Source of the DNA: a virus
Lineage: Duplodnaviria; Heunggongvirae; Uroviricota; Caudoviricetes
IMG/VR virus record: IMGVR_UViG_2617270959_000010
DNA: 12,481 nucleotides
Direction: 5' to 3' (one strand)
Both the position numbers and the translations under genes were made by a program. The notes under the pieces were generated by a model. That model saw only the letters and a program-made list of their open reading frames with translations. It was not told the origin of the DNA and ran no database searches. The first letter of the stretch is position 1, and each line of letters opens with the position of its first letter. Shown piece after piece: positions 11,557-11,899 of this stretch.

Positions 11557-11718
11557 TTATTTAATCAATGAGTTCTGAAAGGTATGAAGTCTATCATCCA
11601 AGTCTCAATCGATCGATACTTGCGGTAGTTGATGAGGAAAACTCTGGTACACAAAGCTTTGCACTGGACTGCAAGGTGTTGTGCTTCTCTGGAGTGCGAT
11701 ATGTTTGATGACAAAAAA

Positions 11719-11753
11719 TTAGCGCAAGAGGACAAAAAATCACCTTGCGCTAA
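11719..11753 (-). promoter_or_regulatory. Perfect 10-bp inverted repeat TTAGCGCAAG-N15-CTTGCGCTAA upstream of the gtr operon; candidate operator or insulating terminator
   Basis: Read directly; on the minus strand the stem-loop is followed immediately by TTTTTTGT (complement of 11711-11718); lies between the att P arm and the gtrA start. Confidence 0.35.
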
Positions 11754-11759
11754 TGCTCT

Positions 11760-11899
11760 GTCTCAGGTCACTAATACCATCTAAGTAGTTGATTCATAGT
11801 GACTGGATATGTTGTTTTTTGTAGTATCATGCAGTCTATTTTTTAGACTAAATGTGTTTTAACACATTGATATTATTGGCTTTTGCTGTTTCGCGTTCA
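11760..11899. promoter_or_regulatory. Lambda-type attachment-site P arm (Int arm-type sites P1 and P2, presumed IHF/Xis/Fis sites)
   Basis: CAGGTCACTAATAC (11764-11777) and CATAGTGACTGG (11795-11806, inverted) match lambda Int arm-type sites; the whole stretch is collinear with the lambda attP P arm as I remember it (TCTGTTACAGGTCACTAATACCATCTAAGTAGTTGATTCATAGTGACTG...TCGTTCAGCTTTTTTATACTAA), nearly identical for the first 60 nt or so. Confidence 0.7.

Follow-up and report, generated by a model that had tools for sequence, protein, structure and literature searches.

The inverted repeat lying between gtrA and the host gene ybhB in this prophage is, with little room for doubt, the tI terminator and sib retroregulatory hairpin, here in a prophage whose integration module (int, xis, attP) is that of phage lambda. 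Such an element is already known: it is real, functional-looking and ordinary, and it belongs to int/att and not to gtr. The window, by which we mean the whole 12,481-nt stretch of DNA analysed, covers the attR end of the prophage, with attL and int lying outside it. The identification draws on the predicted fold of the minus-strand RNA, on base-for-base homology to lambda and related phages, on the position of the element relative to the Int arm-type sites and the att core, and on what the element travels with across phage loci.

The Inverted Repeat and Its Predicted RNA

A check of the sequence places the two perfect 10-nt arms at 11719-11728 (TTAGCGCAAG) and 11744-11753 (CTTGCGCTAA), with a spacing of 15 nt, exactly where a preliminary description of this DNA had put them; the full perfect dyad is 11 nt long (11718-11728 / 11744-11754) and, with mismatches, its arms reach 19 nt at 84% complementarity (11710-11728 / 11744-11762). 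The T-tract reported after the repeat on the minus strand is also present, ATTTTTTGTC directly following the stem. In first-order Markov simulations of the window, 16% of simulated windows contained at least one perfect 10-nt inverted repeat with a loop of 3-20 nt (mean 0.23), and since such a repeat alone is therefore not rare by chance, it is judged real on its conservation and folding energy. The same stretch holds a direct repeat, GA(T/G)GACAAAAAAT, at window 11707-11719 and 11728-11740, through which AUUUUUUGUC, a motif of the terminator tail, is present also inside the hairpin loop.

Read from the minus strand, the repeat is predicted to fold into a G+C-rich stem of 12 pairs, the last of them G.U, followed by a 1x1 mismatch, three further pairs (GAU/GUC) and a 5-nt loop, with a U6 tail. 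The apparent 15-nt loop, which had earlier been regarded as atypical for a terminator, shrinks to 5 nt in the RNA through the G.U pair, the mismatch and the three apical pairs, leaving a standard terminator to which that objection does not apply. The tI hairpin alone has a predicted energy of -19.1 kcal/mol (z = -5.1), and the full sib fold reaches -29.6 kcal/mol (z = -6.3), a stability equalled by none of 200 shuffled sequences. In the full fold, 11756-11765 is predicted to pair with 11706-11716 in a lower stem that uses the U-tract as one of its strands, and in read-through RNA the segment UUUUGUC(A)UCA would pair with UGAGACAGAG on the 5' side to give an almost unbroken stem of about 22 bp, some two helical turns in length. 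Because both the U-tract and the GUC(A)UCA that follows it are needed for the lower stem, this stem would be formed in read-through RNA only. The lambda sequence folds equivalently, into a terminator hairpin with the U-tract again taking part in the lower stem.

Several features indicate on which strand the structure is read. Three invariant pairs are G.U in the minus-strand RNA, and a plus-strand transcript would have A.C mismatches in their place; in two divergent loci (L124 and L131), which carry six changes in the loop region, the apical 3-bp stem is kept on the minus strand only, through U.G-to-C-G and A-U-to-G.U changes. This asymmetry, together with the U-tract, points to an RNA element read from one strand. 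Among 40 distinct variants the core 20 pairs are almost always paired, and the stem hardly varies: 15 of its 25 pairs are invariant, covariation scores equal those of shuffled controls, and the compatible changes are one-sided only, apart from the apical stem retained in the two divergent loci. As covariation support is absent, it is the homology to the experimentally studied lambda element that gives the structure its status. A consensus terminator scan of 11400-12100 did not report the hairpin; its rule admits no internal mismatch and only loops between 3 and 8 nt long, a limit that accounts for the miss.

Homology to the Lambda tI/sib Element

Lambda 27544-27577 can be aligned to the repeat base for base, as can HK97 and phage 434, within a longer stretch in which window 11645-11918 and lambda 27470-27742 share 86.9% identity. 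Across the hairpin block the window departs from lambda, HK97 and 434 only in the loop, by an additional A and an A-to-G change; all stem positions are invariant among the four sequences, and the sole gap is the 1-nt loop indel. The A6 form carried by the window, AGGACAAAAAATCAC, is the commonest variant of the hairpin, found at 48 of the 132 loci of the hairpin-anchored survey described below. Depositors of three phage records have annotated the equivalent positions as follows:

HK97: 'sib retroregulation site', window equivalent 11711-11761, int strand
O276 (lambda derivative): 'Transcription terminator tI', window equivalent 11713-11753, int strand
Phage 434: 'terminator', window equivalent 11711-11753, int strand

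With the fold, these annotations delimit two nested features in the window:

11713..11754, minus strand: tI intrinsic terminator, with its stem-loop at 11718-11754 and U6 tract at 11713-11718 (fold; O276 and 434 features)
11706..11765, minus strand: full sib hairpin (tI plus lower stem), with the conserved block at 11710-11762 (fold; HK97 feature; conservation)

General annotation resources are silent on the element. At a permissive E-value, Rfam returned for the window just two chance-level miRNA matches (E = 0.2-0.9), far below gathering scores, and nothing meaningful for the lambda region; it holds no lambda sib family. RefSeq lists no feature at the hairpin position in either E. coli 042 or E. 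coli 300033. Lambda sib is unrelated to the Sib/Ibs toxin-antitoxin RNAs. The sib concept itself has been summarised in general terms (PMC5300877; PMC2951348).

The attR Junction and Its Neighbours

The attR, ybhB and gtr context named in the preliminary description is corroborated by the att core and by Pfam matches, the main features being these:

11900..11914, plus strand: att core GCTTTTTTATACTAA, identical to the 15-bp lambda core, in a P-O-B' arrangement (attR)
11759..11778, plus strand: Int arm-type site P1 ('int 1' in the lambda record), mapped from J02459 27583-27602
11791..11810, plus strand: Int arm-type site P2 ('int 2' in the lambda record), mapped from J02459 27615-27634
11194..11556, minus strand: gtrA (Pfam GtrA_DPMS_TM, E = 2e-13; RefSeq annotation of relatives)
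10283-11197, minus strand: gtrB (Pfam GT2)
8815-10281, minus strand: gtrC-like gene of 488 aa, named from its position and annotated 'hypothetical protein' in relatives
12005..12481, minus strand: ybhB, a host gene transcribed toward attR (Pfam PBP, E = 2e-42; RefSeq annotation)

The gene in the gtrC position had no Pfam match. Over 11645-11914 the window shares homology with the lambda attP P arm, and homology to lambda, HK97 and 434 stops right after the att core, beyond which lies bacterial sequence with ybhB. The hairpin abuts P1 with its right arm, and 189-194 nt separate its U-tract from the middle of the att core. The int gene of lambda, HK97 and 434 is located on the far side of the core from the hairpin, which places the hairpin just outside the P arm and distal to int; both in these phages' records and in E. 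coli 042, int shares the strand on which the terminator is read. Downstream of sib/tI, and on the same strand, gtrA is the first gene of a gtrA-gtrB-gtrC-like series.

Distribution Across Phage Loci

The preliminary description had made its reading hang in part on conservation of the repeat. A P-arm pattern lying outside the hairpin was scanned in IMG/VR, yielding, with phage loci, 79 loci, and the hairpin was kept in all 79. Left of GAC-A6 these loci fall into many unrelated sequence families, so that, with conservation checked in the 40 variants, homology among related phages ends 3 nt beyond the U-tract. A second scan, anchored on the hairpin itself, returned 132 oriented copies, in 129 of which the hairpin is adjoined by GGTCACTAAT (P1). 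The att cores next to these copies differ, comprising the lambda core and several others, and since hairpin and P1 are kept beside all of them, the arm-site/sib unit is common to integrases of differing core specificity. Non-lambda cores beside sib and P1 include ...TCATCCTTTAGGTGAA..., ...CTCCTTCTGACATGGAAG... and the tRNA-like ...GGCGGAGTTCGACCG; loci with different cores comprise L009, L035, L053, L055, L086, L093, L096 and L100, among others.

Association with gtr is, by comparison, occasional. Only 17 of 80 loci carry gtrA beside the hairpin and 63 do not, and a search for the same repeat upstream of other gtr operons, suggested earlier as a check, found it absent from the gtrA leaders of SfII and HF4s, though these are homologous to window 11440-11643. 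The linkage to P1, the low count of gtrA neighbours and the absence from the SfII and HF4s leaders together make the repeat part of the int/att module rather than of gtr. What had been proposed as a terminator serving gtr is accordingly, on the evidence of the fold and U6 tract, an intrinsic terminator on the minus strand, its owner being the int/attP module.

Proposed Mode of Action

In the circular lambda phage, int is transcribed leftward, across attP, into sib/tI. RNAs started at pI, the promoter activated by CII, terminate at the hairpin and U6 tract (tI) and are protected by their 3' hairpin, so that Int is made for integration. Transcripts from pL, antiterminated by N, read through tI, whereupon the U-tract and the GUC after it base-pair with the stretch preceding the hairpin on its 5' side. 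Guarneros and co-workers in 1982 and Schmeissner and co-workers in 1984 are said to have reported that RNase III cuts the stem of about 22 bp and that 3' exonucleases then degrade the int mRNA. This sib-dependent decay of int mRNA results in low Int during lytic growth. Integration splits attP, taking sib to attR and leaving int at attL, about 40 kb apart, and because sib and int are now separated, the pL int mRNA made after induction escapes sib, and Int and Xis are made for excision.

The element in the window would act as lambda sib/tI does, with termination and RNase III cleavage in this prophage presumed by analogy with lambda. As a by-product in the lysogen, tI, standing between ybhB/attR and gtrA, would block host read-through into gtr; in the excised phage, N-modified pL transcripts would continue into gtr, as they do into the b-region genes in lambda. 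More speculatively, it is conceivable, if rather unlikely, that sib/tI additionally gates the conversion operon in gtr-carrying prophages with a lambda int module. As long as the phage is integrated, gtrABC would then be insulated from ybhB read-through and expressed solely from its own leader promoter; upon excision or infection, N-antiterminated pL transcripts would pass tI into gtrABC, and the RNase III cut at sib would make the 5' end of the gtr message. If true, such a gate would tie O-antigen modification to lytic growth.

Alternative Explanations

A simpler role in the same place would be that of a plain insulating terminator, selected to shield the gtr operon from transcription running on out of ybhB/attR. 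The element does look like a competent intrinsic terminator on the strand of ybhB and gtrA, placed between both; read-through from ybhB is conceivable, as the hairpin that follows this gene (about 11974-12000) has no T-run; and SfII too has a predicted terminator between int/attP and gtrA. We nonetheless consider selection for insulation very improbable, given that the element is conserved with P1 in the 63 of 80 loci that lack gtr, lambda, HK97 and 434 included, that gtr cassettes elsewhere (SfII, HF4s) do without it, and that insulation leaves unexplained both the conserved lower stem, with its use of the U-tract, and the fixed position relative to attP. If the element is tI/sib, insulation of gtr by tI can only be a side effect.

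The preliminary description had also entertained the repeat as an operator for a dimeric regulator of the gtr promoter. A perfect 11-bp dyad does lie within 170 nt of the gtrA start, yet it shows no co-occurrence with gtr, being missing from the SfII and HF4s leaders and conserved beside unrelated genes in loci without gtrA; its G.U pairs and U-tract indicate an RNA element read from one strand, and the conserved gtr leader offers a better operator-like dyad. This proposal was not upheld, and we give it next to no credence.

The leader in question, window 11557-11643, is SfII/SfV/HF4s-like, with a block at 11581-11625 that is conserved in the gtrA leader across phages of this kind. Centred on the sole GATC is a 24-bp imperfect palindrome, CAAGTCTCAATCGAT/ATCGATCGATACTTG (11599-11622), conserved in SfII and HF4s, and, on our reading of the sequence, the conserved block contains an extended -10-like element, TGATAGACT, on the minus strand at 11596-11588; a promoter scan of 11400-12100 found no promoter-like site at its threshold. 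The palindrome and TGATAGACT are better candidates for the operator and promoter of gtr than the repeat is. The observation of a single GATC in the region (11611-11614) was accurate, and holds for the whole of 10918-12460.

Between this leader and the sib hairpin, a further structure marks the seam of the two modules:

11646..11681, minus strand: second, weak hairpin, at the seam of the SfII-type gtr cassette and the lambda att/sib module (alignment)

This second hairpin is homologous to a 'putative rho-independent terminator' of SfII and overlaps the 'terminator for prophage excision transcript' of HK620; in the window its folding does not reach significance (z = -0.8). Lambda too has a second hairpin of this type. 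The stretch ACACAAAGCTTTGCAC, common to phages with different integrases, could be a recombination seam for module exchange. In phage DN1, a depositor's plus-strand 'antisense RNA' (L142 503-664, equivalent to lambda about 27372-27533) ends just before the sib hairpin; its last ~64 nt alone are homologous to the window (11645-11708), and it had no Rfam match.

A small open reading frame crosses the repeat on the plus strand:

11701..11784, plus strand: candidate sORF of 27 aa, rejected as a gene (start in 23/79 loci, frame shifts, early stop)

The ATG at 11701 and the GGAG 6 nt upstream (11691-11694) are as first described, and the frame, read then as 29 codons, encodes 27 aa (28 codons with the TAA at 11782-11784), with the product MFDDKKLAQEDKKSPCANALSQVTNTI. 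Translation of this peptide would be favoured by the GGAG spacing, by a frame open for 27 codons and by the presence of the exact peptide in 10 closely related loci. Conservation analysis argues strongly against it: the start codon is found in 23 of 79 related loci only and is CAG in lambda, the A5/A6 loop indel shifts the frame and yields unrelated C-terminal halves (...KKSPCANALSQVTNTI versus ...KNHLALMLCLRSLILSK), and one copy meets a stop after 9 codons. Furthermore, the 11400-12100 scan gave no promoter-like site on the plus strand, and the conservation of the hairpin and of P1, both crossed by the frame, accounts for the sequence. The sORF is a by-product of these two conserved elements, and a translated peptide is hardly credible.

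Lastly, the dyad might act as DNA in site-specific recombination, for example by binding a further protein or forming a cruciform at attP's outer margin, a role suggested by a right arm that touches P1 and by conservation equal to that of the arm sites; with a dyad that lacks the Int arm-type consensus, a lambda minimal attP that ends close to P1 and a G.U/A.C asymmetry that favours RNA, it has a negligible probability.

Relatives, Prophage State and Significance

The gtrA-sib-attR-ybhB junction is present in 98 of 5426 complete E. coli genomes. One of its described carriers is enteroaggregative E. coli 042, in which the 40.8-kb prophage 042p1/ROD15 is inserted between ybhC and ybhB (PMC2808357); its int-xis genes lie at the ybhC end, and its Int is identical to lambda Int at 351 of 356 positions (99%).

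The window departs from its relatives in its tail genes. Compared with its closest relative, E. coli 300033, it lacks 868 bp (L084 5206-6073), with the junction at 4901-4905 in a 5-bp microhomology, GGCAG. The deletion takes away the 3' portion of the gene for a 'phage baseplate assembly protein' together with the 5' portion of that for 'baseplate assembly protein V', leaving an ORF (4391-4912) for a truncated product of 173 aa, and it was found in no complete E. coli genome of the collection. In addition, a nonsense TGG-to-TGA change at 4293-4295 in a 'DNA circularization protein' gene (3066-4394) costs 33 residues with respect to 300033. The prophage is probably tail-defective and, as it looks defective in these genes, sib/tI may no longer matter to the strain.

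The element, a regulatory site known from textbooks, goes unlabelled by annotation pipelines, and its importance beyond correct annotation is small. Recognising sib/tI averts three wrong calls, namely a gtr operator, a gtr-specific terminator and a small protein gene, and it identifies the P arm of attR as the boundary of the prophage. More generally, the sib hairpin and P1 form a tightly conserved unit of integration modules with several att cores, and the homology of phages carrying it ends 3 nt past the U-tract, where cargo such as gtr starts.

Comparison With Known Systems

The window element and lambda sib/tI have the same sequence bar two loop changes and form the same hairpin with a U6 tail, at equal distance from, and in the same orientation to, Int site P1 and the att core; they also share the lower stem that depends on read-through. 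They differ in the loop, which has A6 here and A5 in lambda, in the state in which the element is seen, here that of a prophage, at attR, and in what lies beyond it: b-region genes in lambda, and here gtrA of an O-antigen glucosylation cassette of the SfII/SfV type.

The terminators annotated in SfII and HK620 follow the same logic in the same place, with a hairpin that follows int and immediately precedes the gtr leader. In contrast to the lambda element, they are not homologous to the repeat, and the phages that carry them use other integrases and att sites; we know of no RNase III role for them.

The closest described relative is 042p1/ROD15, which shares the junction with 99.5% identity over 831 nt and resembles the window's prophage in having a lambda/P22-like early region and SfV-like, Mu-type tail genes; the gtrC-like gene is 488 aa long in the window and 491 aa in E. 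coli 042.

The gtr promoter of P22, too, is located upstream of a phage gtrABC operon that adjoins attP, and it is subject to Dam/OxyR phase variation through four GATC sites in two pairs (PMC8022706). Unlike that region, the window has one GATC only, so that a switch of the P22 type is absent, and the repeat is unrelated to the P22 gtr promoter.
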